This document shows, in pieces, positions 12,994 through 51,611 of a stretch of DNA of 54,801 nt. Source of the stretch: Candidatus Amesbacteria bacterium GW2011_GWA1_47_20. Its GTDB lineage: Bacteria > Patescibacteriota > Microgenomatia > CAZETR01 > Amesbacteraceae. The translations under genes were made by a program, and so were the position numbers. Location: positions 1 to 54,801 of the forward strand of contig LCOA01000002.1 of assembly GCA_001002405.1 (NCBI GenBank). The letters run 5' to 3'. The first letter of the stretch is position 1; every line of letters begins with the position of its first letter. The notes below the pieces were generated by a model, which searched no databases, was not told the DNA's origin, and saw nothing but the letters and a program-made list of their open reading frames with translations.

Positions 12994-12998
12994 GCAGC

Positions 12999-13031
12999 TT
13001 GATTATACGGGGGTGGCCAGCGTAATATCAA
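12999..13031. promoter_or_regulatory. Compact bidirectional promoter, each -35 overlapping the other strand's -10
   Basis: Plus strand: TTGATT (12999-13004), N18, TAATAT (13023-13028), N6, ATG 13035. Minus strand: TTGATA (13031-13026), N18, TATAAT (13007-13002), N8, ATG 12993. No SD on either side. Confidence 0.5.
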
Positions 13032-13034
13032 TTG

Positions 13035-19960: not shown

Positions 19961-20822
19961 AAATCACGGAACACCGGATGTCACGCATAAATGTTTGCAG
20001 AACTTGTATAAATCCCGGGGCGTAGATTTTGAAACTATTCTGATCAACAACACACCTGAGGACAAAATAGCTTTCCCGAAAGTAATAATAATCAACAACA
20101 AAAAACGCCTGGGGTTCGGGGCCAATAATAACCAAGGAATGAAGATCGCTAAAGGCGACAAAATATTACTTCTGAATAGTGATTGCTTTGTGCGGCCGGA
20201 CACGCTGGCCAGGTGTGTCCGCTTGCCCTACGACGTGGTGGGCTGCCGATTGACGACGGCTGAAGGAGCGACATTGCCGTCTACCGGATACTTCCCCACT
20301 CTGCGCCGGGTAGCGCAAATGATAGTGTTTTTCGACAATCTGCCAATCGTGCGCAAAGTCATCGATACCATTCACATCCGGGATGTGTCCCGGTTAGACA
20401 AACCGCAGGAAGTGGACTGGGTCCAGGGAGCATTCATGCTCATATCACACCGGGTGTGTGAGAAAGTGGGGGGATTTAACGAAAATTTCCACATGTATGG
20501 CGAAGAAATCGAATGGCAATATCGTATAAAGCAGGCGGGATTTCATATCTGGTACTATCCCGAAACTTCGGCGGTGCATCTGGAACGGATGAGCATTAAA
20601 TCTCTGGGCCCGTCGTTTATTGGAGAGATGATGGGTTATTTATATTACTTTAAACTGCACCGACCAAAATGGGAGCAGGTACTTTTGCCATGGGTGTTGT
20701 TGTTTGGATGTGTGATACGAATTCCTGCGTGGGCAGTATGGAGAAAATGGGATCTGGTTCGAACTTACGTTAACGTTTTGCCCCAACTAGTTTCTGCAAT
20801 TTATGGCCGGATTAAAAAGTAA
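19941..20822 (+). CDS. GT2-family glycosyltransferase (rhamnosyltransferase-like subtype)
   Basis: LSVIIINHGTPDVT, LLLNSDCFV and DWVQGAFMLISHRVCEKVGGFNENFHMYGEEIEW. ATG 19941 preferred, since the track start 19920 lies inside a -10-like box. Confidence 0.8.
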   Translation: MLSVIIINHGTPDVTHKCLQNLYKSRGVDFETILINNTPEDKIAFPKVIIINNKKRLGFGANNNQGMKIAKGDKILLLNSDCFVRPDTLARCVRLPYDVVGCRLTTAEGATLPSTGYFPTLRRVAQMIVFFDNLPIVRKVIDTIHIRDVSRLDKPQEVDWVQGAFMLISHRVCEKVGGFNENFHMYGEEIEWQYRIKQAGFHIWYYPETSAVHLERMSIKSLGPSFIGEMMGYLYYFKLHRPKWEQVLLPWVLLFGCVIRIPAWAVWRKWDLVRTYVNVLPQLVSAIYGRIKK

Positions 20823-23128: not shown

Positions 23129-23336
23129 TTTTACTCCTCCTGGCGTTCTTTCTTAAACGCAAAGCTAACACTAAACTTAATATACCTAAAACTATGTCAA
23201 TCGTCAATACTAACCAATTGGCCGGTAAACCTAACTGGAAAAAATTTGATACGATAAACACTGCCCCAAACCACCCAGCCGCCAAATTGACAAACAAGTC
23301 TGATAAAATTCCATACAGATCTTTTTGTACCGTCAT
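23121..23336 (-). CDS. Small two-TM membrane protein
   Basis: MTVQKDLYGILSDLFVNLAAGWFGAVFIVSNFF...LALRLRKNARRSKSA. ATG 23336 forms an ATGA overlap with the stop of the upstream GT2 reading frame; the track start is 23387. Confidence 0.4.
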   Translation of the reverse strand: MTVQKDLYGILSDLFVNLAAGWFGAVFIVSNFFQLGLPANWLVLTIDIVLGILSLVLALRLRKNARRSKSA

Positions 23337-24111
23337 ATTACACGAAATATTTTCGATATTTTTTGGCTGGTCCAGGTAATAAACCATAGTAAATAATGCT
23401 TGAGCGGGCCGTTATACCAGAGAGAGGCAGCGGCGTGATATTTTTGAGCGGCACCACCGGATTTGGCTGAACTTTGTCCATGTTCGTGGACAATGGTAAT
23501 CCCGGGGTGGAAAATTATTTTCATTCCTGCCTGACGGAGGCGGCGGCAATAATCCATATCTTCGTAGTAAATAAATACTTTCTCGGTAAATTTGCCTATC
23601 TTTACGATCGTACGTTTGGACAAGAACATACAGGCGCCAGAGATAGCGTTGACAGCAACGGGCTGGCTGCCCGTTGGGGTGTATTTTTGAGTCAGGCCTT
23701 TTTGGCCGAGCCAGTATTCGGCTCGGGAAAAACGGACCCCTGGGGAGTACCGTCAGGGTCAAGGAATTTGGGACCGAGGACGCCCACGTCGGAGTGAGAT
23801 TTGAGATATGCGATGGCTTTGGTAAAAAAATCTTTGGGTAGGAGGGTGTCGGGATTAAGAATCAAGATGTAATCCCCCGTCGCCCGCTCTAATCCCTGAT
23901 TCCACGCCCGGGGTACACCAACATTGGTTTTGTTTTGAATAAATTTGACTTTCTTTGGATGGATGGGGGTGGAAGAAGCATTGTCGATGACAATTATTTC
24001 CAGATTTGGATACTTGGTGGCTCGAATTGAGGCTAGGCACCGAGCCAACGAATCGGCTACGTTCCAATTGACAACAATTACACTAATTGAATTTGGCAAA
24101 GAGGTTTTCAT
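23333..24111 (-). pseudogene. GT2 glycosyltransferase interrupted by a single -1 frame change at an A5 run
   Basis: The N-terminal ORF 23692-24111 (SVIVVNWN, VIDNASS, ILNPDT) ends at TGA 23692-23694. The remainder (AVNAISGACMFLSKRT...YYEDMDYCRRLRQAGMKI) continues in the -1 frame. The frames meet at C-AAA-AAG (23704-23698). All expected motifs are present. Confidence 0.7.
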
Positions 24112-27852: not shown

Positions 27853-28598
27853 TTTTTAACCAATTGCATTTCCCACAGGCGGGCGTAGATAACGAAAGAA
27901 TTAAACACCTGAAATACTCCGTCAATGACACCTTCGACGCCATCGCGCCAGGCGAACAGCTTGACAAAGCGCAGCCAAAACTCGGTGAACATGACCCGGA
28001 CAAATCTCCACCAAGACATGCGGGGATGGCCGGTAGCCAAGCGCAACCGGGCTTCGTAGGTCGTAAAGTCTAAAGTTTTATTCAACATTGAAGTCAAATC
28101 CCGGTGGGAATAATGGACTAGTTCATGATTCATGGTTCGTAATTCACCTGAAAAAACCGGTTGTTCGTGAAGCTCGCCCACGTACCTCTGGAGGGCAGAT
28201 TTTTTAAACAGTCTAATGACCCTGTCGCCGCCCCAACCGCCGAAATGCATTTCCCGGCCCAAATATATATTTTTGCGGGGGATTTGATACACTTGAACGG
28301 AATCAGGAGAGGACATAATTTGTTCGATCTCTTTTTTGAGTAAAGGAGTTACTCGTTCATCGGCGTCTACATACAAAATCCAACTGCCACGGGCGGCTTT
28401 GAGTCCGAGATTTCGCCGGGTAGCATAACTATCCTCCCTACATGTCACAATTTTGGCTCGATGGGATTCGGCTATGTCAACGGTAGCGTCGGTGCTGCCG
28501 CTATCAACGACAACGATTTCGTCAGAAAAAGCCAGAGACAGGAGACATTCTCCAATCATGCTTTCTTCGTTTTTGGCAATGATGATGCTAGTTAACAT
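27849..28598 (-). CDS. GT2-family glycosyltransferase (WaaE/KdtX-like subtype)
   Basis: SIIIAKNEESMI, VVVDSGSTDAT and YVDADE. ATG 28598 preferred over the track start 28613. Confidence 0.85.
   Translation of the reverse strand: MLTSIIIAKNEESMIGECLLSLAFSDEIVVVDSGSTDATVDIAESHRAKIVTCREDSYATRRNLGLKAARGSWILYVDADERVTPLLKKEIEQIMSSPDSVQVYQIPRKNIYLGREMHFGGWGGDRVIRLFKKSALQRYVGELHEQPVFSGELRTMNHELVHYSHRDLTSMLNKTLDFTTYEARLRLATGHPRMSWWRFVRVMFTEFWLRFVKLFAWRDGVEGVIDGVFQVFNSFVIYARLWEMQLVKK
28121..28148. repeat. Degenerate heptanucleotide tract (GTTCATG ATTCATG GTTCGTA ATTCACC) in a GT2 gene
   Basis: Encodes GELRTMNHEL. The unit is related to that of 27626-27657. Confidence 0.7.
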
Positions 28599-29446
28599 AA
28601 CTACCCCGGCCAAACCGGCCTAAATAAAAATCAACCACTCCCTTTCTTTGCCAGGGACGGCCCGAGACCAGATGCTGAAGTGACTGACGAAAAAGGGCCA
28701 GTTTGGTGCGCGGCGGCGCCCAGCGCAGACCAAAAAGCAAGCGGTTGCGGGTGGTGTAATAGTCGGCCAGCGGTGAACCTATGCCAGAAGCCTGACCAAC
28801 TCGATGCCAGACAATACTTTCCGGTACATAATAGAGTTTCCAGCCCGCGCGGGAAGCCCTGACGCAGAGATCAGTTTCCTCGTAATACAAAAAATATTTA
28901 GGGTCAATCAGGCCAATTTGTTCCAGAACTTGCTTGGCCGATGTCTACTTCGTCAATACCTATATGTTGAGTAATGAGGTTAGCCCAATCGATCTTGCCT
29001 CCGGCATACCACAGCACGTGGCCCAGCTGGGACGGGGTATACCTGGTTTTGTGAAACTCGAAGCCTTTGGCAAAGTAACATTTGGAACCAAAAATGCCTC
29101 CCATAGGATGGTCGGAGGCGGCATCAGCCAACGCCTGCAGACTCCCGGGATGAACCTGGACGTCGGGGTTTACAATCCAGACAAAGTCCGAGCCGTGGTC
29201 CAAAGCGTACTGCAGGCCCACGTTATTGCCGCCGGCGTAGCCTAAATTTTGCCCCGTTTGGATAAGTTTGAATTTGGGGAACAGCTTTTTAATTAGCTTA
29301 ACCGAATTATCCGTAGAACCATTGTCTACTACCACGATTTCCACTTGATGAGGACGGGTGGCCAGACGACCAAGCGACCGCAGACAGGGAGCGATATATT
29401 TACCCGCGTTCCAATTAAGAACGACTACCGTAATTTTCATATCCAT
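28588..29446 (-). pseudogene. GT2 glycosyltransferase with internal deletion plus frameshift
   Basis: The N-terminal ORF 28904-29446 (VVVLNWN, VVDNGSTDNS, IVNPDV ... GIDEVDIGQ) stops at 28904. The C-terminal part (KQVLEQIGLIDPKYFLYYEETDLCVRASRAGWKL) is in another frame. The roughly 17-aa segment that normally lies between GQ and the VxExIG motif, including the SGA/GAC motif, is absent. Confidence 0.65.
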
Positions 29447-30276
29447 CGCCTAAGCCAAGTAGGTGAGTTCCACCAGCGATACTCACGGGCTTTACTTTTT
29501 AACTCATGTGTCAAATCGGCTTGACTGAATTTTGTCTCGGCGAAACCTTGGTGTTCCCAGGCTTTGAGGAAGCGTATGAATTCGGAAAACATTTGCAGAC
29601 CGGCTAAAGCCAGACCGTGCAGCCCCTGGGTGTATCCCCGGCGGGCGAAATATTGACTCAAAAACTCGGCTATGGGTTTAGTTACCAGGTCGGCCGGAGT
29701 AAATGAGGTAGGAATGGCAGCTTCAGAGTAACGATCTATGCGTTCTAGGTACTGACTGATGGAAGAATAGTTATGATGCACCAAACTGAATTCTTCTTTG
29801 GCAGGCAAATCTGCTCCCCGGCCTTGGGTAACAGGAATACTGTGAACGGTGTCTTCCCAGGTTACAGTTCCGCGGCGGAACAGGCGATAGACGTAGTCCG
29901 GCCACCAGTGGTCCGAAGTGATCCATTTGCCAAAAATGATATTTTTACGTGGCAGGCGGTAATAATCTACTGCAGAATCCTTGATCAGTTCTTTTATTTT
30001 TTTAGCCAGAGCTGGAGGAACTTCCTCGTCGGCATCCAGTAGAAGTATCCAGTCTCCGATAGCCTTGGAGATGGAGAAATTGCGTATGTGCTCGACGATG
30101 CCCGTGTGGGCATGGGGAAAAACCTTGGCCCCGAGCTTTTTGGCTGTTTCGGCTGTTTTGTCGGTAGTGGCTGCATCTACTACAACGACTATTTCATTCG
30201 CGAGGCGGGAAATGGAAGATATGGCGCGACCGATGTTCTTTTCTTCGTTCCAGGCCGTAATTACCACCGAGAGCAT
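29437..30276 (-). CDS. GT2-family glycosyltransferase (WaaE/KdtX-like subtype)
   Basis: LSVVITAWNEEKNI, VVVDAATTDKT and LLDADE. Confidence 0.85.
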   Translation of the reverse strand: MLSVVITAWNEEKNIGRAISSISRLANEIVVVVDAATTDKTAETAKKLGAKVFPHAHTGIVEHIRNFSISKAIGDWILLLDADEEVPPALAKKIKELIKDSAVDYYRLPRKNIIFGKWITSDHWWPDYVYRLFRRGTVTWEDTVHSIPVTQGRGADLPAKEEFSLVHHNYSSISQYLERIDRYSEAAIPTSFTPADLVTKPIAEFLSQYFARRGYTQGLHGLALAGLQMFSEFIRFLKAWEHQGFAETKFSQADLTHELKSKAREYRWWNSPTWLRRWI

Positions 30277-31846: not shown

Positions 31847-33263
31847 GGAGAAGTTTACGGGCGTCGGTGAATAACGCTGGCCCGACGAGTAAATATACAA
31901 CAATTGCGTAAGCTGCTACCCCAAGCAGGATGTTTCCCACTAGCGCTACTAAGATCATAGCCACTGTCGCCAGCGCCGGCTTGACAAAGCTATTTATCAG
32001 ACTAAAGCCCGTTAAACGCTTGACGATAATGACGGGGATGATGGAGGTTAAGGCGATGAGAGCCGTGGCGTAAGCCACGCCGTTGTAGCCAAAGCGGTGG
32101 GCCAAAGACGGAACCAAGATCCAGGTGAGAGCGGTCCACATGAACATTAAATAAGTATTGGTTTTGACGCGGCCCAGGGCATTGAGAGTGTTCGTTAACG
32201 GAGTAGAAACGCTGGCCAGAGCAGAATTAAAACAATACAGCGTCAGAGCCAAGAGGGCCGGCTGCCATTTGGAGTAGCGGGGAATAAAAAGAACCAGTTG
32301 GGGAGCAAAGACGGCTAGACCGGCCACAATTGGGAAAGTGATAAGCGTAATGAAAAACAGAGTGCGTTCGATGGCCCGACGCAATTCTACGGGATTATCT
32401 TGAAGTCTGGCAAAACTGGGGAATGTGACCCTAGTAACATTATCCATAATAAAACGCAGGGGTTTTTGGGACCAAGTCTGGGCCCAACCAATAATACCTA
32501 CGCCATCGGCCCCTATAATTTTCCAAAGGATGATGTTGATGAAGCGGTCTTTGACGGTGGCCACCAGGGAATTTATCTGATACGGCAGGCCAAAAGAGAG
32601 AAGAGATTTGAGAGAAGAGATAGAGAAGGATAAACCAATTTTCCAGGGCGACAGCCAGTAAATCATAGCTGTGCCGACGACTCCTCGGAAAATGACGGCC
32701 CAGGCATAAGATATGACTCCCCCACCCTGCCAGGCCAAAAGGACGGCAATGCCGTAAAAGATAATGGTTTCCACGACTTCCACTGCAGCCAGCTCTTTAA
32801 ATTGCAATTTGCGTTCTAGAATGACTGATGGGATGGTTTTGAGGGAAGCTAAGAAAAAGGCTGCCAATAGACTGTAAAAAAGCCACGTACCATTGTTACT
32901 GATGTGGTAAAAACTAAATATCCAAGGAGAAACCCCCAGCGTTAACAATAACAGTAAGAGAACTATGATTTGCTGGATGGTGAATGTAGTACGCAGATCG
33001 GTGATAGTTACCTGATCTTTTTTCTGAATAAGTGAGGCGGCTAATCCAATGTCAGAAAAATAACCAAGTATGGAAACTAGATCGTTAACTGCAATAAACA
33101 GACCGATTTCCGGTCGACCCAAAAAAATGGACAGGGCCAGAAAACCGCCGGTAGCCACAAACTGTAACAAGAATGAACGGCTAATAAGCGTGACTATCCC
33201 CGAAACCGTGCGCGCCTTAACAGTGGTCAAATCTACATCCCCGAGCGTCATTTCTTCCGCCAT
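31830..33263 (-). CDS. Wzx-type oligosaccharide flippase (MOP superfamily, polysaccharide biosynthesis protein)
   Basis: 477 aa, about 12-14 TM segments, overall pattern typical of Polysacc_synt/Polysacc_synt_C flippases. Operon head with TAAAAT 6 nt upstream of the ATG. Confidence 0.7.
   Translation of the reverse strand: MAEEMTLGDVDLTTVKARTVSGIVTLISRSFLLQFVATGGFLALSIFLGRPEIGLFIAVNDLVSILGYFSDIGLAASLIQKKDQVTITDLRTTFTIQQIIVLLLLLLTLGVSPWIFSFYHISNNGTWLFYSLLAAFFLASLKTIPSVILERKLQFKELAAVEVVETIIFYGIAVLLAWQGGGVISYAWAVIFRGVVGTAMIYWLSPWKIGLSFSISSLKSLLSFGLPYQINSLVATVKDRFINIILWKIIGADGVGIIGWAQTWSQKPLRFIMDNVTRVTFPSFARLQDNPVELRRAIERTLFFITLITFPIVAGLAVFAPQLVLFIPRYSKWQPALLALTLYCFNSALASVSTPLTNTLNALGRVKTNTYLMFMWTALTWILVPSLAHRFGYNGVAYATALIALTSIIPVIIVKRLTGFSLINSFVKPALATVAMILVALVGNILLGVAAYAIVVYLLVGPALFTDARKLLHAFRR
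32596..32623. repeat. 14-nt tandem duplication (GAGAGAAGAGATTT GAGAGAAGAGATAG) in the flippase gene
   Basis: 12/14 identical. Encodes SISSLKSLLS. Confidence 0.8.
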
Positions 33264-35188: not shown

Positions 35189-36663
35189 AGTTTTTTAACT
35201 TCAAAAAACAGTAGATATTCCTGGGTACCGTCGGGTTTGACGGCCTTGGGGTAGGAAGAAATCAGTTTCAGTCCTAATTGGTCCGGGTCGCCTTGGAAAC
35301 GGGTGGAGTTGATGACTAAAAATACTTGATTATCGGCTAAGGCAGATTTAAGTTTGTCGGGCACAGAATCAATCCACACTCCAACGCCAACGATTCTTAC
35401 TGTAGGGAGATCGTTTAAATACAGCTGGAGGGCGTCAAAGGGGGTACCAAAAAATCCTTCGCTGCCTACTAAAACTGGACCGGCGGCGGCGGACTGGCGC
35501 AGGCGCCGAGCTACGTCGCGTAGGCCGTATCCAGCTGTCCAGTCTTCCAAATATCCCGATCTCTCAATGCGCGGCAGCGGTAAAGATTCAGGACTAGTGA
35601 CGGCTAAATAATTTATGATCAGAGCCGGAACAATGATCAATCCTGCTGCAGCAACAGATAAAAAATGTTTCTGGGTGCGTTGACCGATATGTTCCAGCGC
35701 GTGAGCAATTAAAATAACGGCAAAGGGTACGGTAAACATCAGGTAACGGGCGGTGAATGCCCGAGCCACGGCAGATTGCACCAGAGTGGGGCCTAGCCAC
35801 CAAGCGACTAAAACTAGGCGGGCTTGCCAATGGGATTTGCTTCCAGCTAAAACACCGGAAACGGCGGCCAATAATCCTAAGGGGGTAAGAAAATACGCCA
35901 GGAAAAGAAGTGTGTCCTTGAGATGGGGTAAGAACGGATCGAGGGGATGAGCTAAGACTTCTGCTAAGGGGAATACGTAATCCGCGTTGCGCAGAGCGAT
36001 CATGTGGAATTCTGGTCCCAGGCGCAGAATGTTGTACATGCCAAAGGCAATGACATAAGTAGTGAGTAGATACAGCAAATGTTTTGGGTGGGGTTTAACG
36101 ATGAGGAAACTGAGAGGCAAGAGACCAAAGGCGAAAATGGCCGGAGATTTGGTCAGCCAGGCAAACCCTAGAGCAAAACCGGCAAACATGGCCAGATCTA
36201 ATCGCTTGTGCACAAAAGACAGATACGAAAAGACAAATGTCCACACCAAAAACATGGTCAATAAACTGTCTGTTAGGGCCATACGGTCAAAGAAAACAAA
36301 ATACGGAATAACCGCGGCCAACAAACCCGCTATAAGAGAAAGACGGAGATTAGAAAATAGAAAGTAGGAGACGAGAGCGATGCCGACGACGGAACCTAAA
36401 CCGGCTAGGGCCGAGAGAGCCCGGCCGGCTAGAAGCGGATCGGAGAAAAGTTTCAACAGAGGGATGGTGGCCCACATGAAGAGAGGTTGTTTACCATCGG
36501 AGAGAGGCAGGAAGCGTAAAGTAGACTCTGCCCGCATGACCTGGGACCAACGGACATAAATGGCCTCATCTGCAAAAATGGGGAAAGAGTTAAGATTCCA
36601 AAAACGAAGTGCTCCTGCTAGCAAAAGAATGATTAGACTAGTTATCCAGAAGTTTTTGCTCAT
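35185..36663 (-). CDS. ArnT/PMT_2-type GT-C membrane glycosyltransferase
   Basis: First-loop FADEAIYVRWSQVM (DExxY motif), GKQPLFMW, and about 11-12 TM segments. Confidence 0.75.
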   Translation of the reverse strand: MSKNFWITSLIILLLAGALRFWNLNSFPIFADEAIYVRWSQVMRAESTLRFLPLSDGKQPLFMWATIPLLKLFSDPLLAGRALSALAGLGSVVGIALVSYFLFSNLRLSLIAGLLAAVIPYFVFFDRMALTDSLLTMFLVWTFVFSYLSFVHKRLDLAMFAGFALGFAWLTKSPAIFAFGLLPLSFLIVKPHPKHLLYLLTTYVIAFGMYNILRLGPEFHMIALRNADYVFPLAEVLAHPLDPFLPHLKDTLLFLAYFLTPLGLLAAVSGVLAGSKSHWQARLVLVAWWLGPTLVQSAVARAFTARYLMFTVPFAVILIAHALEHIGQRTQKHFLSVAAAGLIIVPALIINYLAVTSPESLPLPRIERSGYLEDWTAGYGLRDVARRLRQSAAAGPVLVGSEGFFGTPFDALQLYLNDLPTVRIVGVGVWIDSVPDKLKSALADNQVFLVINSTRFQGDPDQLGLKLISSYPKAVKPDGTQEYLLFFEVKKL

Positions 36664-42181: not shown

Positions 42182-43565
42182 AGAGAAGGCGTGTGCGACG
42201 GCTGACTGTAAGTGGACCGAAAGTTAACGTAGTGTCGATTTTACCAATGCCATCCTGACGAGTTTGCCAAGCGGATAAAAATTGAGGGTGTTCACCATCC
42301 GGTTCATAAATAGTGTATAGCCGCGAAACTAATTGTGCAGAAGGTCGGGCCGATTTTCCCCGCCAGAGGAAGAGATAGTCATAGGCGTGGGGAATAACCG
42401 GGGGAACGTAGACATCGGTGTTAAACGACTGGCCGGCGGCATCCTGATAAATCCAATCCACAGCCTGGATTTGGGGCGTGAGAGTAATGTAGCCTGGAAG
42501 AGTCTGGCGGAAGTATGCCAGATGATACGACACGTTTTGGAAAATAAAAACCGCCAGAAAAATGGCTGCGGCCCAGCGGCCGGCGGATAGCCAAATGGCG
42601 GCGATTAAAAGCGTAAAAGCCGGATAGACGCCGGTAAAATAATAGTCCCAAATGTAATCGTGGTTGCCGTGATAAAAAAGCAGGAGAATCAAGGGGGTGA
42701 CCCACCAGACAATAAGAATGGTGGTAGGCAGTGGCGGCAGCTTGCGGCGAACAAGTAAAAAGAGAGCGGGTAGAGACACGGCAAAAATAGCCCAGGCCCG
42801 GTCGGTGGTGAAATACTTGTTGGTAAAAATGGTGTAGTAAAAATTGAGACGTTTGGTATATGCCCCCAGATTGGGCTGGAAACTTCTTTCACTGACCAGG
42901 AAACGTTTGAATGAGTTGAATAAAATGTTCTGATGGCGGAAATTGAAAACAATTTGGGGCATGAGCGTCAAGCCAAAAAGCAGCAGGGCGACCAGGGGAA
43001 TCTTTAACTTATGCAGAAAAGCGATAATTAGAATCGCAGGCAGGAAAAAGATCGCAGAGGCGGCTTCCAGCTGCAAAGACAGACCGGCACACAGACCCAC
43101 TAACCACCAGCGGCGCTTAAGAAGTGAGTCGAGAGTAAGCACGGCAAACAGAGGTAAGGGTGTAGGATTGGACAGCCAGCGCTGATAGCCGACAAACTGC
43201 TGGGACACTGCGGTAATAAAAGCCGCCACCAGGCCTACATTGGGTCCCAAGAATTCCTCACCGAGCTTGTATATATAGTAAATGGCCAGGACGTTTAAGA
43301 GAGCCAAGAAGACCGCCGGGTACACCGGATTGCCGCCACCTAAGATATAAGCCGGGGTGATGAGGTAATAATAAAATGGCCCTAGAAAAATGCCTTCGAT
43401 ACCGGTGGTGGGGCCAATGAGGGTGAGTTTGCCAGAGTGCCAAATGTCCCACACCACTTTGGCATCCCGACCCTGGTCAAACCAAAAACCCAAAAAATCC
43501 GCCACTCGGTAAGTGCGGAGAAAAAGAGCCAGGGCTAAGATTGCAATGAGTAAGATCTTTTTCAT
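42171..43565 (-). CDS. GT-C-like membrane protein, second subfamily
   Basis: GFWFDQGRDAKVVWDIWHSGKLTLIGPTTGIEGIFLGPFYYYLITP. ATG 43565 (MKKILLIAIL) forms an ATGA overlap with the upstream stop; the track start is 43622. Confidence 0.55.
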   Translation of the reverse strand: MKKILLIAILALALFLRTYRVADFLGFWFDQGRDAKVVWDIWHSGKLTLIGPTTGIEGIFLGPFYYYLITPAYILGGGNPVYPAVFLALLNVLAIYYIYKLGEEFLGPNVGLVAAFITAVSQQFVGYQRWLSNPTPLPLFAVLTLDSLLKRRWWLVGLCAGLSLQLEAASAIFFLPAILIIAFLHKLKIPLVALLLFGLTLMPQIVFNFRHQNILFNSFKRFLVSERSFQPNLGAYTKRLNFYYTIFTNKYFTTDRAWAIFAVSLPALFLLVRRKLPPLPTTILIVWWVTPLILLLFYHGNHDYIWDYYFTGVYPAFTLLIAAIWLSAGRWAAAIFLAVFIFQNVSYHLAYFRQTLPGYITLTPQIQAVDWIYQDAAGQSFNTDVYVPPVIPHAYDYLFLWRGKSARPSAQLVSRLYTIYEPDGEHPQFLSAWQTRQDGIGKIDTTLTFGPLTVSRRTRLLYDQ

Positions 43566-45712
43566 TTTCCAGAGGGATTGTGAATAAGGCGGAATACTTT
43601 TACTCCCCAGGGAAATTCCCATTGGCGGTCAATTTTGGCCCAGCCAAAAGCGGCCACCTCCCACAAAGGATTATTTATGGGCTCGCACACCGGATCTTCG
43701 CAAATAACAAACAGCTGATCTGCCAATTTTTGGTGAATGGTGAAATACGGGGTGCCATAAATATCTAAGAAATACCGGTAGCCCAGGTCGTAATTCGTTT
43801 TGGCCAGAAGGGCCAGGTTGAATGGCCGGGCGGCTGATTGATCGGTCACAAATCTGGCAATTTCCCGGGTGTGAGCCAGCTGATTGTTGGGCGGGTAGCG
43901 CAAGGGAGAATTCAGCAAGGCAGCCGCGATTAGCACTATCAGCACAATAGCCCCGGTTTTTTTAAATTTTTCTACAACAAAGCCCAAAAGTAAAAACGGA
44001 GCCGGAAACAAAAATCCATAGTAATGATCATAGATATGCTGCTTATACAGACCTAGCCCAATTAAACCTACCCCCATCCAGACGGTAGTGAACCAAAAAT
44101 CTTTGGAAGGGCGGTGTTTAATTAAATAAATTAATCCGCCGATCAATAAAATTCCCATGGCTACACCCAACGGCTTGGACTTGGCAGCAAGAAGAGAGGT
44201 GTTGATATCTACCCACAGCGGCCAAAGATTGGGTAAGGCTTTGTAGGCTTTGAGATTAACTGTGGTCTGTCGATCGGCGAAGAAGGTGGTGATGGCCCGG
44301 GCATTGATCCAGCCGTGACGCATGTCAAACCAGAGAAGAGGAGACATGAGCACTGCAAAAACCAAGACAGCGTAGAGCGTATAGCGTTTAGCGTCTAGAG
44401 GTTTACGCGCCAGGAACCAGAAAAGACCCACGACGGGGAAAAGGAGTAGGCCTAAGTAATGAGAGTTGAGAACGAAGGCCAAAGAGGCTGCGGAAATGAC
44501 TAGCCAGCGCCAGTAGCCTAAACGCCAGACTTTCCAAATGCCGTACATGGATAGAAGCGCAAAAAAGGGCATAATATTGGGATTCCAAGACGAACGAGAA
44601 TAGGTGATAACTGTGGGAGATAGAGAGTAGAGAGTAGAAATTAGGAGGGCCGGAACGCGGCCAAACCATTGGCGGCCGATCCACCACAAAAGGGCCACGG
44701 TGGCCACACCGAACACAGCCACCATAATTGCCGGGCCCACTGGCGAGAATTGAGATAAAGATAGAGGAATAAGAAGTAAGTAATAATATAAGGGACCAAG
44801 ATACATATTGCCGATGGATGTGCCCGGACCAATAAGGGTGAATTTGCGGCCCAAAAGCATATCCCGGACGACGGCCACATCCCGACCTTCATCGCCTAAG
44901 AAAGTCATATACTGATCGATTTTGTTCAGCCGGACAAAAACCGCTAACGCCAAAACCGCCACTATGGCCAAAGCTTCCCAACGGAAAATTGCCCGACCTT
45001 GTTCGACTAATATCTCCTGTTTTAATTGCCACCAATATATAGCCAGTTCGCGCCAGGCTTTAATCCAAACTTTGGGATTACCACCCGTGGCTGTCCCGGC
45101 GGTTCTGGGCAAATGAGTCACGGGCATTTCGGCAATCTTCATGCCCCGGGCTCGTATCCCCGCCAACAATTGAGTATCAATCATCGCCCCGTCGGAAGGA
45201 ATACTCACCCGGCGCAAAACGTCCCGCTTGAATACTTTGAATCCGCAATCAATATCGGAGGCCAGGTATCCGAACAGGGCCCGGATGCCCGTGTTCCATA
45301 ACCAGCGGACAAATTTACGATGCAAGGGATCGCTATCGTTGGCTCTGATTCCAGAAACCATGTCTGCCTTTTCGGTTTCCATCTTTCTTAAAAGATCCGA
45401 AACTTCGGAAATATCAAACTGATTGTCCGCGTGAGTCATGACAATTAATTCCTTGGTGGCGGCTTTGAATCCGGCTTTGAGGGAGCCACCGTAGCCGCGA
45501 TTGGGGCGGTTGGTGACGATTTTCAAATTGGGGATTTTTTTGACAAAGCTTCTGGCTATCTCACCAGTTCTGTCCGATGATCCGTCATCGACCAAAATTA
45601 TTTCGGCGTCTAATTTAAGTTTTTTGGTGACGGCGGATACCGAAGTCAGGCATTTGGCGACATTCTCTTGTTCATTGTAGGCGGGAATAACTATCGAGAC
45701 GCCTTTTGACAT
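43562..45712 (-). CDS. Fusion protein: N-terminal DPM1-like polyprenyl-phosphate glycosyltransferase (GT2) plus C-terminal GT-C-like membrane domain
   Basis: N-terminal part: VSIVIPAYNEQENV, ILVDDGSSDRT, THADNQFDISE and DIDCGFKVFKR. From about residue 250: FLGDEGRDVAVVRDMLLGRKFTLIGPGTSIGNMYLGPLYYYLLLIP plus about 12 TM segments. Operon head. Confidence 0.75.
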   Translation of the reverse strand: MSKGVSIVIPAYNEQENVAKCLTSVSAVTKKLKLDAEIILVDDGSSDRTGEIARSFVKKIPNLKIVTNRPNRGYGGSLKAGFKAATKELIVMTHADNQFDISEVSDLLRKMETEKADMVSGIRANDSDPLHRKFVRWLWNTGIRALFGYLASDIDCGFKVFKRDVLRRVSIPSDGAMIDTQLLAGIRARGMKIAEMPVTHLPRTAGTATGGNPKVWIKAWRELAIYWWQLKQEILVEQGRAIFRWEALAIVAVLALAVFVRLNKIDQYMTFLGDEGRDVAVVRDMLLGRKFTLIGPGTSIGNMYLGPLYYYLLLIPLSLSQFSPVGPAIMVAVFGVATVALLWWIGRQWFGRVPALLISTLYSLSPTVITYSRSSWNPNIMPFFALLSMYGIWKVWRLGYWRWLVISAASLAFVLNSHYLGLLLFPVVGLFWFLARKPLDAKRYTLYAVLVFAVLMSPLLWFDMRHGWINARAITTFFADRQTTVNLKAYKALPNLWPLWVDINTSLLAAKSKPLGVAMGILLIGGLIYLIKHRPSKDFWFTTVWMGVGLIGLGLYKQHIYDHYYGFLFPAPFLLLGFVVEKFKKTGAIVLIVLIAAALLNSPLRYPPNNQLAHTREIARFVTDQSAARPFNLALLAKTNYDLGYRYFLDIYGTPYFTIHQKLADQLFVICEDPVCEPINNPLWEVAAFGWAKIDRQWEFPWGVKVFRLIHNPSGK
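44617..44644. repeat. Heptanucleotide tract (GAGATAG AGAGTAG AGAGTAG AAATTAG) in the GT2-GT-C fusion gene
   Basis: Encodes LISTLYSLS. Resembles the tract plus TTAGGAG flank at 8913-8940. Confidence 0.8.
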
Positions 45713-45726
45713 GCTACAATTGTATC
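45713..45726. promoter_or_regulatory. 14-bp divergent intergenic region with palindromic overlapping -10 boxes
   Basis: GCTACAATTGTATC. Plus strand: TG-n-TACAAT (45715-45720), N6, ATG 45727. Minus strand: TACAAT (45724-45719), N6, ATG 45712. Confidence 0.5.
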
Positions 45727-46773
45727 ATGAAAATCAGCCGAGAATTGCTGATCTTGGCCACAGTTTCGGTAGTATCGACGTTGTCCTTGTGGATTCCGGT
45801 GGGAATGCAAAAGGTATATGAGAATTTTGATGGGCCGTACTATATCGTGATTGCCAAAAGCTGGTATGACAAAGTATTTATCCGCAACAATTTTTCCTTC
45901 CCCTTGCCTTTGGAATATTATCCGGCGCACTTCCCTTTGTATCCGGCTTTGATTTGGCTGTTTGGGGGAACGCCGACGGCGGCGGTAATAATAAACATAG
46001 TGGTATCGGCACTAACAGCTGTAGTAGTGTACAAAATATTTGCCGAATTCAAATGGGGAAATCCATTGATGGCCGGATTGGTGTGGCTGTTTGCCTGGCC
46101 GAGGATGTGGGTGACCAGATCAATTGTCAGCCCGGAAACACTATTTATCTTATTTGTAATGGTGGCGCTGTATGGATTTCATAAAAAATCATATTGGCTG
46201 GCGGCCATAACCGGGGCGCTGGCGGTGGTAACCAAAAGCCCGGGTATTTTGCTTTTTCCAGCTTTTCTCCTGGCGTCGAAAGGTGACAAAAAAATTTGGC
46301 CAACTCTGCTAATCCCAGCAGCGCTGATGGCAGTATTCGGGTTTTACTTCCTGCGCACCGGGGATTTTTGGGCATATTTTCATTCCGGAGATAATATTCA
46401 TTTACAAATTCTGCCATTTAGGGTTTTTGACAGCAACCAGGCATGGGTGGGACAGTGGTGGCTGGAGGATATTTTGTGGATTTACTTAATCGGGGGGATC
46501 GGGGTAGTTAGGGCTTTTAGAAAATCAGCTGTCTGGGGGTGGTGGGGGGCGATATTTTACGCGGTGATTTTATTTGTATCCCACCGGGATATTGCCAGAT
46601 ATTCACTGCCATTGGTACCAGTAGTTATTTTAGGCTTGGCAGATGTTTTAGAGAAGAAAGAGGTCAGATGGGTACTGCTGCTACTAATTATCCCTGTGTA
46701 TTTCTACAGTCTCAATTTCCTGGCTCACAACACGGCTGCTATTTCGGATTGGACGCCTTTTTTCTCCAAATGA
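45727..46773 (+). CDS. PIG-V/Gpi18-like membrane mannosyltransferase-like protein
   Basis: ENFDGPYYIVIAKSWYD...YYPAHFPLYPALI resembles the FDGxHY...FFPLYP signature of the partial gene at 1-623. Polytopic. ATG 45727 lies 6 nt after TACAAT; the track start 45706 is TTG. Confidence 0.5.
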   Translation: MKISRELLILATVSVVSTLSLWIPVGMQKVYENFDGPYYIVIAKSWYDKVFIRNNFSFPLPLEYYPAHFPLYPALIWLFGGTPTAAVIINIVVSALTAVVVYKIFAEFKWGNPLMAGLVWLFAWPRMWVTRSIVSPETLFILFVMVALYGFHKKSYWLAAITGALAVVTKSPGILLFPAFLLASKGDKKIWPTLLIPAALMAVFGFYFLRTGDFWAYFHSGDNIHLQILPFRVFDSNQAWVGQWWLEDILWIYLIGGIGVVRAFRKSAVWGWWGAIFYAVILFVSHRDIARYSLPLVPVVILGLADVLEKKEVRWVLLLLIIPVYFYSLNFLAHNTAAISDWTPFFSK

Positions 46774-47872
46774 CGAGGGTGTACATGAGGTAGTTGTAAG
46801 GCATAACTAAAAATCCGATTGTCAGGGGTAAAACGATCTGGCGGTATTGCGAACCAAGAAGATAATCTGTGGCTACTCCCACCCCTACTTGGATCAGCAA
46901 GCCCCCGGCCGAAGTAAGGTTGAATTGCAAAAACTTTGAGGCAATAGCCGCCAGACCATTGATCTGCTGATCCCTGAATGTCCAGAGATTGTTCCAGGTG
47001 AAATTGCTTAAGATAGCCAATTCAGTGGATAGACCCCAAGCCGCCCAGCCCGGCCAGCTTAACTTAGTAAATAGATACAAAGCGAAGGCATTGACTAAAT
47101 AGCCCAAGAAACCTACCAGGCCGAATTTGATAATTTTTTGCTTGTCTTTGATGCCCAAAATAATTGCCACCTTAAAGGTGGAAATCATTTCCTTGGGGTT
47201 AAATTTAGATTTTTCTTTGGCCCGAGAGGCGAATTCTAAAGGGACCTCGACGACCTTTTTAGCATTTTTAATACTTTGATAAAGCAAGTCTACTTTGTAA
47301 GCAAATCTAGTAGGCTCCATCAGGTGTTCCAGATCAATCTGGTCCAGAACTCCCTTAACCCGGGTAAGTCTGAAACCGGTAGTCAGATCGTGAATTTGTG
47401 GTTTGAGAAGGACCATCCGGATAAAGAGGTTCCCCAAGAAACTCACCGCTTTGCGGCTAAATTCCCATTCTTTGGGGATGGAACCACCCCTAATATACCG
47501 GCTGCCAATCACATAATCGGCTCCGTTTAAGAACGCGGCCACCATATCTTTGACGAATCTGGGTGGATGTTGAAAATCAGCATCCATTTCCATAACCGCA
47601 TCAGCACCAAGTTTGTTAACTGCATACTGCATGCCCCGGATATAGGCCCAGCCCAAGCCCTCTTTGGGTTTTTGCAGCAGGTGCAGATTTTTATATTCGG
47701 CCTGATATTTTTTAACGATGTTCCCCGTGCCATCCGGAGAAAAATCATCGACGACCAGAAGATGCATCTCGGTATTCTTGATTTGGGGAAATTCTTTGCC
47801 AAACAGCTCTTCAATCATCAGGCCGATATTCTCCGCTTCATTGTACGCGGGCATAATAATTACGACTTTCAT
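46739..47872 (-). CDS. Polyprenol/dolichol-phosphate mannosyltransferase-like GT2 fused to a C-terminal GtrA-like membrane domain
   Basis: [27 protein letters not shown] and [11 protein letters not shown], then [20 protein letters not shown]...[10 protein letters not shown] (GtrA-like, 4 TM). Confidence 0.8.
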
Positions 47873-47889
47873 ATATAATTGAGTATATC
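47873..47889. promoter_or_regulatory. 17-bp divergent intergenic region with two back-to-back -10-like boxes
   Basis: Plus strand: TATAAT (47874-47879), N10, ATG 47890 (trmD). Minus strand: TATACT (47887-47882), N9, ATG 47872. Confidence 0.35.
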
Positions 47890-48522
47890 ATGCTAAAAGT
47901 TGATATTTTGACGCTATTCCCAGAAATGTTTACAGGGCCATTTGATCATTCAATTGTTCGGCGGGCGACTGATAAGTCGCTAGTGGAAATAAAAATCCAC
48001 AACTTGAGGGATTGGGCGACAGATAAATATAAATCGGTAGATGATAAACCGTATGGGGGAGGACCGGGAATGGTCATACGCGTTGACGTCGTCAACGCAG
48101 CGGTCACAGCCCTCAGGTCTCAACGCACAAAAGTTATTTTGTTAGACGCCGGAGGAAAGAAATTTAACCAGAAAAAAGCAGCTGATTTATCACATGATGA
48201 GCACTTGATATTGATTTGCGGACACTATGAAGGCGTGGACCATAGAGTGCATGAACATATTGCAGATGAAGTAATTTCCATTGGTGACTATGTGTTATCC
48301 GGCGGGGAGGTTCCGGCGATGGTGGTGGTAGATACAATTGTGCGGTTGTTACCTGGGGCGTTGGGAAATGAGCAATCTTTGATTGAAGAATCACATAATG
48401 CGGGAGAAGCCGAATACCCTCAATATACCCGCCCCGAAGAATACAACGGCTGGAAGGTTCCTGAAATTCTTCTCTCTGGTGATCACGCCAAAATTAAGAA
48501 GTGGCGATCCCCTGCTCAATAA
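47890..48522 (+). CDS. trmD: tRNA (guanine37-N1)-methyltransferase
   Basis: [35 protein letters not shown] and [12 protein letters not shown]. Short C-terminal tail (210 aa). Confidence 0.9.
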
Positions 48523-49330
48523 GTTTATCTACTACTTGCTTCCAGGGTGAAAAATCAAAACTGGGTTTGAGTCCGCCAAATTTGGGGTAACGCTTGGGAT
48601 CAACCGACGACTTTTGCACGCCGGAAATATCTTTGCCTAATTTTTGCAAGAGATAGGTAATGATTTCATACGGGGTGGTCGTGTCCGGACAGCTCATGTG
48701 AAAGACGCCGGAGAGATTTTGATCAATGATTTTTTGCAGTGCCAGACAAGCCTCGTCAATATAGGTAAGAGAAATTTGCTGGTCGGTAAAAAGCGGATAA
48801 AGTTTGCCCTGATTAAACAGGTCTAGGGGTTTGCGCAGATAATCGAGCTTAGCTGGGTATTTGGCCCGGATGGGGGAGATAAGACGGACGACGGTTCCCC
48901 TGTCCCCCACAACTCTTTCTGCTTCGGCTTTGGAATAACCATACCAAGTTAGCAGTTGGCTGTTGGTCTCTGGCTGATGGTCTGCCGCGTAAGGACCGGG
49001 GTCGGCGGCAGATCCGGAAAAGACATAATTGGTGGAGATGTGAATTAAACGGGTATTAGCAAGAAGTGCAGCGACAAGATTTTTGGTTCCTTCCACATTT
49101 ATTTGCCAGCAGGGTCCGTTTTGGTCGCCACGTTGTTTTTCAGCTTCGGAGACGTTGGTGTAGGCGGCAAAGTTCAAAACAACATCCGGATTTTCCTTGG
49201 CCAGATATTCTCCGGGGTGAGCCAGGTCAAATTCACCCAGACCCGGAGTGAGAAGATCTTGGGGATGCGGGTACAGCTCTACAAATCTTGATCCCACTAG
49301 TCCGAAAGCTCCTGTAACTAGTGTTTTCAT
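48494..49330 (-). CDS. rmlD: dTDP-4-dehydrorhamnose reductase-like SDR
   Basis: [16 protein letters not shown] Rossmann motif, YGYSKAEAE (YxxxK), 278 aa, adjacent to rmlCBA. Confidence 0.7.
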
Positions 49331-49331
49331 A

Positions 49332-49895
49332 CTACATTATATCTGGTTCGACGAAATCGAAGGGTAGCTGTTTTGGATCAATTCTATGTTCTTCGGTTTC
49401 AGAGTCAGCTTTGAATACTTGATCCGCAAAATAAACCAAGGTCACCGGAAAGTTGTTGGGATTTATGAAACCGTGAGCCACCCCATGGGGAATATACAAC
49501 GCCTTATCTGGTGACAGTACTACTTTGGTTTTTTGACCATATGTTTCTGACCCTTCCCTTAGATCCACTAGACCTACTAACAAAATGGAGTTGGTCGTCC
49601 AAATTTCATTTTGACTGGGATGGATATGCCAAAACCTTTTGCCTCCTGCGGCGATATATGACATGTTGGATTGACGGATCTTAAAATTAATACCAAATTC
49701 GATTAATGCTTGAAAATGGAAACTTTCTGATAATCTAAAGTTTTCCTTAAACCACCCGCCCAAGTCGTCAGGGAAGACGTTGATTTTCATAAGCACTACG
49801 TCTTTCGGATGTGGTTCTTTACTGTAAGTCTGCTGAAGCAAATTAACCCCTTTTTCGGTTTTGATTTCCTTGACTGTTTTTTTTATAAATCCCAT
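49332..49895 (-). CDS. rmlC: dTDP-4-dehydrorhamnose 3,5-epimerase-like cupin
   Basis: RFWHIHPSQNEIW...LYIPHGVAHGFIN cupin pattern. Located between rmlB and rmlD. Confidence 0.65.
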   Translation of the reverse strand: MGFIKKTVKEIKTEKGVNLLQQTYSKEPHPKDVVLMKINVFPDDLGGWFKENFRLSESFHFQALIEFGINFKIRQSNMSYIAAGGKRFWHIHPSQNEIWTTNSILLVGLVDLREGSETYGQKTKVVLSPDKALYIPHGVAHGFINPNNFPVTLVYFADQVFKADSETEEHRIDPKQLPFDFVEPDIM

Positions 49896-49896
49896 G

Positions 49897-50916
49897 TTAT
49901 TTTTTATATATTGATTCAGCGCGCGCTTTTAGTGGTCTCCACCACCATTTGTTTTGCTGATACCATTCTACGGTTTTGGTTAACCAGATGTCAAAATCAT
50001 GCGTGGATCTCCAACCCAACTGGCGGCGGATTTTTGAACTGTCGAGTGCGTAACGCCTATCGTGACCTGGCCGATCAGGAACGTAAGAAATTAACGATTC
50101 TGGCTTATCCATAATTTTTAGTATTGTCTTAACAATATCGATGTTGTATTTCTCACAATTAACACCGACTAGATAAGTCTCTCCGGGTTGACCTTTTCTC
50201 AACACGATATCGATCGCCGAGCAGTGGTCGTCAACATGTATCCAATCTCTCACATTTTTGCCATCTCCGTATACAGGAAGAGGCTGATTGTCCATAGCGT
50301 TGGTAATTAGCCTGGGAATAAGCTTTTCTGGATCCTGATATGGGCCGTAGTTATTTGAGGTATTAGTGATGGTTATAGGAAGCCCAAAAGTGTGTAAATA
50401 CATTCTGACCACGAAATCGGCGGCTGCTTTGGAGACAGAGTATGGGCTTCTCGGATCGTAGTGGGAATTTTCACTAAATTTGTCACTCGTAGTCAATTTC
50501 AGTGTCCCAAAAACTTCATCTGTGGAAACGTGATGGAATCGCTTCACGTGGTGTTTAACTGCCTGACGGCAGAGAACAGTAGTTCCGACAATGTTTGTTT
50601 TGACGAAGATGTCTGGATCAATAATGGATCTGTCGACGTGGGATTCAGCTGCGAAGTTCACAACGGCATCTATGCCCCCCATGATCTTGTCGACCAGCTT
50701 TTCGTCACAGATATCTCCTTTAACAAAGTTGTAATTTTTCTTCCCAACGATATCTTTTAACGATGATGGGTGGCCAGCATAGGTAAGTTTGTCGAGATTG
50801 ACAATGTAATCTTTGGGGTATTTGTTAAACCAATACTTAATGAAATTCGAGCCGATAAATCCCGCTCCACCGGTAACTAGCAATTTCATATCTTGATACC
50901 TCTTTTCCGAGCCCAA
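49897..50916 (-). CDS. rmlB: dTDP-glucose 4,6-dehydratase
   Basis: KLLVTGGAGFIGSNF, HVSTDEVFG, YSVSKAAADF and RPGHDRRYALD. Confidence 0.9.
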   Translation of the reverse strand: MGSEKRYQDMKLLVTGGAGFIGSNFIKYWFNKYPKDYIVNLDKLTYAGHPSSLKDIVGKKNYNFVKGDICDEKLVDKIMGGIDAVVNFAAESHVDRSIIDPDIFVKTNIVGTTVLCRQAVKHHVKRFHHVSTDEVFGTLKLTTSDKFSENSHYDPRSPYSVSKAAADFVVRMYLHTFGLPITITNTSNNYGPYQDPEKLIPRLITNAMDNQPLPVYGDGKNVRDWIHVDDHCSAIDIVLRKGQPGETYLVGVNCEKYNIDIVKTILKIMDKPESLISYVPDRPGHDRRYALDSSKIRRQLGWRSTHDFDIWLTKTVEWYQQNKWWWRPLKARAESIYKK

Positions 50917-51611
50917 TAGAGATTGGCTGCGAGCAGGCTGTCAAATGTGCCTACATCATGCCAATAACCTTTTAGTTCGTGCCACTGCATAGTGCCCTCT
51001 TTAATGTAAAAATTTTGAACATCAGTGATCTCCAGCTGGCCACGTTTAGAAGGCTTAAGTTTTTTTGCCACTGCAAAACAGCGGCTATCAAAAATATATA
51101 GACCCGTGGAAGCATATGGAGAGGGGGGTTTGACTGGTTTCTCTACAACGCCTATGATTTTCTTAGCTTTACTAAAGATTGGAACGCCGAAGCGCTGGGG
51201 GTCAGGTACTTTTTTAAGAAACATTACCGCCCCTCTTTTAAATGAGGCAGCTTCCCGAGAAATATCGGCGTCTGTGGTGTTGTCCCCGAGAATGAGAGTC
51301 AGCGTATCCCCATCGACAAAGTCTTCGGCTACTTTTAACCCATCGGCTATCCCGCCAACCGGATTTTCCTGGTAACCATATTCTAAGTGGTCGAGGCCTA
51401 GCTCTTTGCCATTTTTAAGTATCTGCACAAATTGTCCGGAGTGGGGTCCGGAGACAATAACCATAACATTCTTAATGCCGGCTTTAATCAAAGTTCGCAA
51501 AGGATAGAAAATCATCGGCTCATCGTAAATGGGGAGAAGGTGTTTGTTGGTGACGTAAGTTAGGGGTTGAAGCCTGGTAGCTAAACCGCCGGCGAGAACG
51601 ACACCTTTCAT
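50886..51611 (-). CDS. rmlA: Glucose-1-phosphate thymidylyl/nucleotidyl-transferase (short form)
   Basis: MKGVVLAGGLATRLQPLTYVTNKHLLPIYDEPMIFYPL. Confidence 0.8.
   Translation of the reverse strand: MKGVVLAGGLATRLQPLTYVTNKHLLPIYDEPMIFYPLRTLIKAGIKNVMVIVSGPHSGQFVQILKNGKELGLDHLEYGYQENPVGGIADGLKVAEDFVDGDTLTLILGDNTTDADISREAASFKRGAVMFLKKVPDPQRFGVPIFSKAKKIIGVVEKPVKPPSPYASTGLYIFDSRCFAVAKKLKPSKRGQLEITDVQNFYIKEGTMQWHELKGYWHDVGTFDSLLAANLYWARKRGIKI

Follow-up and report, generated by a model that had tools for sequence, protein, structure and literature searches.

How are two divergent genes transcribed and translated when only 14 bp lie between their start codons? The question is raised by a locus in the genome of an uncultured groundwater bacterium, Candidatus Amesbacteria, within a stretch of 54,801 nucleotides that was analyzed as a whole and is called the window here. 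A preliminary description, made from the sequence alone, had proposed that two leaderless transcripts originate at overlapping, mutually exclusive -10 boxes. As far as sequence can speak to it, we find this proposal supported by the two start codons, by an invariant TGnTAnnnT pattern on both strands, by relatives with longer spacers, and by an enrichment of -10-like boxes located 6 to 7 nt before gene starts (N6-7, where N is the number of nucleotides between hexamer and start codon).

Direct reading of the window sequence places the minus-strand start codon at 45710-45712 (CAT on the plus strand) and the plus-strand ATG at 45727-45729. The spacer between them, 45713-45726, is GCTACAATTGTATC, which leaves 14 bp between two oppositely oriented sugar-transferase genes, exactly as the preliminary description had stated for ATG 45712 on the minus strand and ATG 45727 on the plus strand. 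The hexamer TACAAT occupies 45715-20 on the plus strand, where TGTATC separates it from ATG 45727, and 45724-19 on the minus strand, where TGTAGC separates it from ATG 45712. Both hexamers have AT 45719-20 in common, within TACAATTGTA, and the earlier account of TACAAT-N6-ATG units that overlap in a palindrome is thus borne out on direct reading. That account had assigned a TG extension to the plus-strand box only. The plus-strand extension is indeed present (TGc), but the minus strand carries one as well (TGa), and either strand reads TGnTACAAT-N6-ATG. In each TG, the T pairs with the A of the opposite ATG, and the G is the outermost base of the spacer. Taken together, both start codons and the spacer form the 20-mer CATGCTACAATTGTATCATG, which is palindromic at 18/20 positions. 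Between -17 and +3, the two putative promoters differ at 2 positions in the window and at none in relatives L001-L003. The elements discussed below are as follows.

45710-45729, no single strand: candidate bidirectional core promoter, the 20-bp near-palindrome CATGCTACAATTGTATCATG; pattern CATGnTAnnATnnTAnCATG kept in 25 relatives' loci and the window.
45715-45720, plus strand: putative -10 hexamer TACAAT, N6 to ATG 45727; T-12, A-11, A-8 and T-7 invariant in 13 distinct variants.
45712-45713, plus strand: putative TG extension (-15/-14); T 45712 is the last base of CAT, and G 45713 is the first spacer base and invariant.
45719-45724, minus strand: putative -10 hexamer TACAAT, N6 to ATG 45712, recognized from sequence and conservation.
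45726-45727, minus strand: putative TG extension, the complement of C 45726 and A 45727; C 45726 invariant.
43562-45712, minus strand: gene for a 716-aa GT2 and GT-C (PMT_2) fusion, first of a co-directional array, recognized by profile matches.
45727-46773, plus strand: gene for a 348-aa polytopic membrane protein, GT-C-like, with a start position conserved in its family.
47873-47889, no single strand: second compact divergent spacer, 17 bp, ATATAATTGAGTATATC, between a GT2-GtrA gene (minus strand, ATG 47872) and trmD (plus strand, ATG 47890); related context.

Of the features expected of a bidirectional promoter, overlapping -10 elements on opposite strands with symmetric key bases are present, and their core TAnnATnnTA is invariant in 13 variants of the spacer. 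As in extended -10 promoters, TGnTAnnnT occurs on both strands while the -35 element is weak or absent: we found only 0-2/6 matches to TTGACA at spacers of 16-18 bp on either strand, and the -35 region of both promoters is conserved no more than its coding sequence requires. A -10 box at N6 before the start codon, the position typical of leaderless genes, is likewise found on both strands. The motif GGAG and its variants are missing upstream of both start codons. The preliminary description had stated that there is no room for a Shine-Dalgarno sequence; the motif is indeed absent, but this counts for little as evidence, since genes in this window mostly lack such motifs.

We next consider the two genes themselves. 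The minus-strand product contains a GT2 domain at residues 6-168, aligned from profile position 1, and a PMT_2 domain at residues 307-461. Its GT2 part is nearest to polyprenyl-phosphate sugar synthases (of the ArnC, AglJ, and dolichyl-phosphate hexose transferase kinds), with all matches below family cut-offs. Further GT-C genes continue on the minus strand, and the first of these overlaps the fusion gene by ATGA at 43562-43565. For the plus-strand product, we obtained sub-threshold matches only, to PMT_2 and to the AZOBR_p60025 family, and some sources name its homologs “Gpi18-like mannosyltransferase”. A sequence search for solved structures related to this protein found none, so its functional assignment rests on the weak GT-C-like matches. 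The homologs carry the names Candidatus Amesbacteria, Microgenomates, or Patescibacteria. It is plausible that both products belong to a single pathway, in which a synthase of a lipid-linked sugar donor with GT-C partners would be joined by a further GT-C-like protein. The locus had been introduced as two divergent operons; this holds for the minus side, with its co-directional array, but not for the plus side, which is a single gene convergent with the minus-strand gene at 46739-47872 that overlaps its 3' end. The 3' ends of these convergent genes overlap by 35 bp (46739-46773), and no terminator-like site was found between them.

The surroundings of the pair have the character of a surface-glycan island, with at least 10 GT-C-like paralogs, several GT2 genes, a Wzx-like flippase (32000-33263), and rmlABCD (adjoining, at 48494-51611). 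GT-C-like genes for membrane glycosyltransferases of roughly 460-560 aa, paralogs of one another with PMT_2, PTPS_related, and GT87-like matches, form an unusually long series between 3732 and 45712, with GT2 genes interspersed. Two minus-strand GT2 genes are split, one into an N-terminal ORF at 23692-24111 and a C-terminal ORF at 23333-23629, the other into ORFs at 28904-29446 and 28588-28890; these genes (23333-24111 and 28588-29446) could be frameshifted pseudogenes or assembly errors. Scans of the whole window for tRNAs and Rfam families gave no matches.

Any argument about leaderless transcripts depends on whether the two ATGs are the true start codons, and the preliminary description had named starts lying farther downstream as an observation that would count against it. 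This is not what we found: the reading frame, the GT2 profile, and the family alignment support both ATGs. On the minus strand, no other start codon separates ATG 45712 from the stop upstream of it, and the next in-frame candidate is codon 40, which lies past the conserved ...VIPAYNE motif; the protein is thus predicted to begin with MSKGVSIV. The plus-strand ORF additionally contains TTG 45706 upstream and TTG 45745 and 45754 downstream, all in frame. The N-termini of homologs align with MKISRELL of the plus-strand protein; in nearly all Amesbacteria-like loci, the start codon stands 32-33 codons before NFDG; and in L010, L016, L017, and L070, the equivalent of this ATG is the sole start candidate of the ORF. 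Among close relatives, codons 2-6 show synonymous changes (AGC/AGT, CGA/AGA/AGG), while residues 2-6 are conserved as protein across the family, with a basic residue followed by D, N, or E. This combination implies that codons 2-6 are translated and that the start lies upstream of them. TTG 45706 was rejected as a start because it is found in one relative only (L003), and TTG 45745 and 45754 were rejected because many relatives have no start codon there. The downstream position is a start codon in the closest relatives only, where gene callers chose it (342-aa proteins), and the plus-strand proteins of these relatives (P0002 and P0004) are accordingly annotated 6 residues short. Sequence comparison thus supports ATG 45712 and ATG 45727 as the start codons, each with no conserved in-frame start upstream and no Shine-Dalgarno motif, as is expected of leaderless-type genes.

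A short A/T-rich spacer might merely resemble two -10 boxes by chance. In favor of this reading, TANNNT-N6-ATG alone is not over-represented in the window (21 found versus 24.6 expected); it is not rare, and a hexamer followed by an ATG carries little weight unless other evidence is added. The non-random features of TANNNT-N6-ATG are its association with gene starts and its conservation. The window contains the generalized pattern of the whole element, CATGNTANNATNNTANCATG, a single time, and 100 shuffles never produced it; given the base composition, a random 14-bp spacer fits G.TA..AT..TA.C with P = about 1.8e-5. We consider chance to be extremely improbable, and the persistence of the predicted invariant and variable columns in 13 distinct variants, described below, effectively refutes it.

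We compared 160 loci around homologs of the plus-strand gene, along with 3 loci obtained by exact protein look-up; related contigs originate from sites that include Hainich and Rifle. The divergent arrangement of a GT2 gene and a membrane-protein gene is kept in Amesbacteria, Woesebacteria, Collierbacteria, and other Microgenomates. A 14-bp spacer occurs in 26 instances (the window, 24 loci, and L163), which represent 13 distinct 20-mers, and the plus-strand products of these relatives are 52-87% identical to that of the window. In a stack of 18 distinct contexts, from which the column counts were made and whose pattern L163 also fits, the invariant spacer columns are exactly G.TA..AT..TA.C. 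The other six spacer columns all vary, with 2-4 different bases each, and most positions of the flanking first codons are variable in both genes. What stays fixed on each strand is therefore T-12, A-11, A-8/T-7, and the G of the TG (-15/-14). The chance that the 8 invariant columns would be the 8 predicted is 1 in 3003, a figure to be read with the reservation that the 13 variants come from related organisms and are not fully independent. G 45713 and C 45726 are invariant without being forced by the start codons, a pattern that fits selection for the TG extension.

In Amesbacteria-like loci with spacers of 25-84 bp, separate TAnnnT boxes stand at N6-N10 before each ATG or GTG. The box is kept before the minus-gene start in 17/17 distinct spacers and before the plus-gene start in 15/17, and the sequence between the separate boxes is unconserved. 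As most of these relatives keep a TAnnnT of their own near each start, the box tracks the start codon. When all distinct upstream sequences are taken together, both genes show a sharp TAnnnT peak at N6-N9, and a TGn extension accompanies 32/47 and 23/42 of the N6/7 boxes.

The Collierbacteria pair has yet another arrangement, a 25-26 bp spacer that holds the perfect palindrome AGTATATACT, consisting of two TATACT hexamers that share TA, with the minus-strand ATG 7 nt downstream and the plus-strand ATG 8-9 nt downstream. This geometry is that of the published 23-bp class of bidirectional promoters. The use of AGTATATACT in Collierbacteria-like loci in place of the 14-bp element indicates that one gene pair has several bidirectional-promoter geometries across lineages. 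We see the palindrome in Collierbacteria-like L029, L035, L045, L048, L051, L061, L063, L067, and others, about 20-30 bp upstream of the plus-gene start. Among short contigs (about 1.1-1.9 kb) that carry the plus-strand gene, L161 and L162 begin at an identical base, a few codons inside the gene. They are separate public records (one ENA and one JGI assembly), and their shared break lies just downstream of the expected palindromic promoter. We considered whether these ends could be transcript 5' ends and set the idea aside; they most likely reflect an assembly break, uninformative on start sites, and the shared breakpoint may have been caused by strain variation or by the inverted repeat.

Given this conservation pattern, we asked whether the 14-bp element could be something other than a pair of promoters. 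One alternative is that both mRNAs carry leaders, being transcribed from unrecognized promoters inside the opposite gene, and that TA..AT..TA serves as an A/U-rich unstructured region for Shine-Dalgarno-independent initiation. Some leadered messages here, such as those of operon-internal genes, must rely on such initiation, given that genes of the window are generally without Shine-Dalgarno motifs. However, the bases that never change are, on either strand, exactly T-12, A-11, and A-8/T-7 plus the TG at -15/-14. Since the “n” positions accept G and C, A/U richness alone does not describe the constraint, and the invariant G 45713 and C 45726 fit a TG extension instead. Moreover, the box of longer-spacer relatives keeps its distance of 6-10 nt to each start, the stretch from one box to the other is unconserved, and we detected no conserved -35/-10 pair upstream in the neighboring coding regions. 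We regard this alternative as unlikely. A different proposal is that a dimeric transcription factor regulates the two genes together and that the near-palindrome serves mainly as its operator, with the -10-like hexamers being incidental to the half-sites. The 18/20 symmetry in the window speaks for it, as does the perfect palindrome in L001-L003, L081, and L082, and in the csoR-cueA divergent pair an operator does lie over overlapping -10 boxes. An operator would be expected to keep its dyad across relatives through conserved or co-varying half-sites, whereas here non-consensus positions change without compensation in the other half, leaving 16/20 symmetry in L004; variable bases break the dyad, for example, in CATGCTACAATAATAGCATG, and likewise in L004, L008, and L095. 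Because the varying bases do not preserve the palindrome, the pattern favors two -10 boxes over a dimer operator. The fixed bases are limited to those that dual -10 boxes require, the longer-spacer relatives carry two separate, non-palindromic boxes, and we found no regulator gene adjacent to the divergent pair. An operator as the chief function is in our judgment quite improbable, though a regulator recognizing TAnnATnnTA could exist, possibly alongside the promoters.

It could also be that the minus-strand promoter is as proposed but that the plus-strand gene uses another, composed of TTGACA at 45706-11 and GAAAAT at 45729-34 with a 17-bp spacer, and starts near 45741 to be translated from TTG 45745. 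A promoter scan gives this pair 10/12 matches, and TTG 45745 is ATG in L001-L003, the same start that underlies the shortened annotations of P0002 and P0004. Yet TTGACA 45706-11 is simply codons 1-3 of the minus-strand gene read on the other strand, and it is absent in L004, L008, L010, L014, and L017, which also have no downstream start codon at this position. The ATG at -32 codons is conserved everywhere, and residues 2-6 (K/R-rich, R/K-[DNE]) are conserved as protein, with synonymous changes. This combination is very unlikely to be the plus-strand promoter. As a -35 element for the plus-strand TACAAT, TTGACA 45706-11 was rejected, for it ends only 3 bp from that hexamer, and its pairing with GAAAAT in the plus-strand gene is not conserved. 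We also rejected a terminator or hairpin reading of the palindrome, which is followed by no T-run and at which the terminator scan found nothing.

We also asked whether -10 boxes beside start codons recur at other genes of this organism. For this comparison, gene starts in the window were chosen mechanically as the first ATG of each long ORF (n=45). TAnnnT at N6-7 precedes 9/45 gene-start ATGs versus 33/1436 other ATGs (odds ratio 10.6, p=2e-6), and the association persists without the two focal starts (odds ratio 8.3, p=1e-4). The other gene starts with a box at N6-7 are ATG 1936, 13035, 17212, 30276, 33263, 36663, and 53851. Shine-Dalgarno-like motifs, by comparison, are not enriched, occurring at 3/45 gene starts versus 10% of random positions. 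Translation initiation here thus seems largely independent of Shine-Dalgarno motifs, even for operon-internal genes; because such translation is normal in this genome, absence of the motif does not by itself imply a leaderless mRNA. Many adjacent genes in the window overlap by a few bases.

Other gene starts in the window and the lineage show related arrangements. In many Microgenomates, the start of trmD is preceded by a -10 box, mostly 6-10 nt upstream. In the window, the trmD start forms one side of the second compact divergent spacer, ATATAATTGAGTATATC, whose other side belongs to a GT2-GtrA gene with a polyprenyl-phosphate sugar synthase-like product. This spacer holds TATAAT on the plus strand (N10) and TGaTATACT on the minus strand (N9), and it is kept closely similar in L001, L003, L004, L010, L015, L016, and L086. 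Judged by the box positions, transcription would begin at a conserved A, and the leaders would be 2-3 nt long. Around 19920-19965, a plus-strand GT2 gene (ATG 19941, with TAGAAT at N7) appears to overlap a minus-strand gene for a 527-aa membrane protein at their 5' ends. The candidate ATGs of the latter are 19942, 19954, and 19960; if the first of these is used, the two start codons share CATG. A divergent GT-C-like pair at 12993-13035, with 41 bp between the ATGs, carries a separate -10-like box per strand, TATAAT at N8 (minus) and TAATAT at N6 (plus). Two further boxes precede minus-strand genes, TGcTAAAAT at N6 before ATG 30276 (30262-30276) and TATACT at N7 before ATG 36663 (36648-36663). 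Each lies within the co-directional gene upstream of it or directly at that gene's 3' end, which suggests that they may be internal promoters within gene arrays.

How might the 14-bp element work? The reading that we favor, and consider probable, is that of a symmetric bidirectional extended -10 promoter that would give rise to two leaderless mRNAs with starts 15 bp apart and would accept RNA polymerase in one orientation at a time. The 14 bp and the opening base of each adjoining start codon would make up a symmetric bidirectional core promoter composed of two TGnTACAAT elements and no -35 element. The preferred start, 7 nt after each hexamer, would be the A of the ATG (45727 on the plus strand and 45712 on the minus strand). 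In other words, with each hexamer ending 6 nt before its ATG, transcription is predicted to start at the A of that codon, and both mRNAs would then be leaderless. The promoters may be described as “crossed”, in that, of the two hexamers, the top-strand one is on the left, and upstream polymerase contacts would fall over the first codons of the other gene. Furthermore, the A:T pair at the +1 position of each transcript would double as T-15 of the opposite promoter.

This geometry has consequences for how polymerase could be shared. The footprint of RNA polymerase and the size of the transcription bubble permit only one orientation at such overlapping sites. Here, the open complex of either promoter would unwind about 45716-45723 and occupy a common stretch of roughly 75 bp; with bases and footprint in common, one polymerase would be accommodated in one orientation at once, and each initiation would serve one gene. 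The near identity of the two promoters from -17 to +3 further predicts similar intrinsic strength and hence a competitive, roughly balanced output. A much broader proposal can be formulated, which we think unlikely when taken as a whole: that leaderless extended -10 promoters are the default for first genes in Microgenomates, a part of the Candidate Phyla Radiation (CPR), that the 14-bp element is a hard-wired polymerase-sharing device which fixes the ratio of the sugar synthase/GT-C operon to its partner GT-C gene, with anticorrelated surface-glycan noise between cells, and that the 15-bp “crossed” geometry constitutes an undescribed, selectable class of bidirectional promoters.

If confirmed, the element would be about the smallest possible control region for two genes, as each constrained base of its 20 bp would be a start-codon base or a promoter base, and one base pair per side would do double duty as both. 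Promoter and translation-initiation rules in the Candidate Phyla Radiation are essentially uncharacterized, and our results suggest calling gene starts in Microgenomates by the position of the -10 box and not by Shine-Dalgarno motifs. The gene pair also offers a natural evolutionary series for the study of polymerase competition, from crossed boxes in a 14-bp spacer, through boxes sharing TA in a 25-26 bp spacer, to separate boxes 33-84 bp apart.

Both principles that are combined in this element have precedents. Bidirectional promoters with divergent starts 7-25 bp apart and shared symmetric -10 elements were described by Warman, Forrest, Wade & Grainger (bioRxiv 10.1101/2020.01.31.928960; follow-up PMC12825309). 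In that work, the favored start spacing in E. coli has a mode of 18 bp, with 29, 23, 12, 10, and 7 bp also favored, and one polymerase binding event excludes the other (bioRxiv 10.1101/2020.01.31.928960; PMC12825309). The Amesbacteria element resembles these promoters in the pseudo-symmetric -10 region on both strands, in predicted starts that fall within 7-25 bp, and in a +1 base pair that doubles as an upstream base of the opposite promoter. It departs from them in its predicted start spacing of 15 bp, which lies outside the preferred classes, and in the manner of overlap, as its hexamers share A-8/T-7 whereas theirs pair A-11 with T-7. In addition, both sides here are extended -10 elements without a -35, both transcripts are putatively leaderless, and the intergenic region is only 14 bp. 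Any comparison of start sites must consider that those of the Amesbacteria pair are deduced from -10 positions and that the published sampling did not extend to Microgenomates.

Leaderless genes in which TAnnnT lies 6-8 nt before the ATG or GTG of first genes are known in Actinobacteria and Deinococcus (PMC3898074, PMC4007540, PMC6028130), and the published computational criterion for bacterial leaderless genes, as in the “group C” genomes of GeneMarkS-2, is a Pribnow box lying 6-8 nt before first-gene starts (PMC6028130). The Amesbacteria pair shares with these genes the box near the start, the lack of a Shine-Dalgarno motif, and a start site, here a predicted one, at the first base of the first codon. 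It differs in belonging to another phylum and in having two such units fused back to back within 20 bp. Among the papers covered by our literature search, we found no report of leaderless genes in CPR/Patescibacteria, and a search on leaderless genes together with bidirectional promoters found no doubly leaderless bidirectional promoter in the papers examined. Neither principle is known to be documented in the Microgenomates lineage.

Among individual systems, the csoR-cueA divergon of Bradyrhizobium liaoningense, for which polymerase competition has been discussed, likewise has divergent genes with partially overlapping -10 elements; 5' RACE showed csoR to be leaderless and cueA to have a 42-nt leader (PMC5057107). 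There, however, only one transcript is leaderless, a CsoR operator lies over the boxes, and the intergenic region is longer. The C-protein and QseC/QseM switches also have divergent overlapping promoters (PMC8789080), but in these it is the -35 regions that overlap and dual regulator-bound operators that exert control, whereas no regulator or operator is evident here. Set against these systems, the Amesbacteria element appears to be a very compact, conserved version of the known bidirectional promoter, an extreme compaction of two known principles. If confirmed, it would bring the Candidate Phyla Radiation into the range of bidirectional promoters and add to their geometries one of 15 bp with extended -10 elements and two leaderless transcripts.
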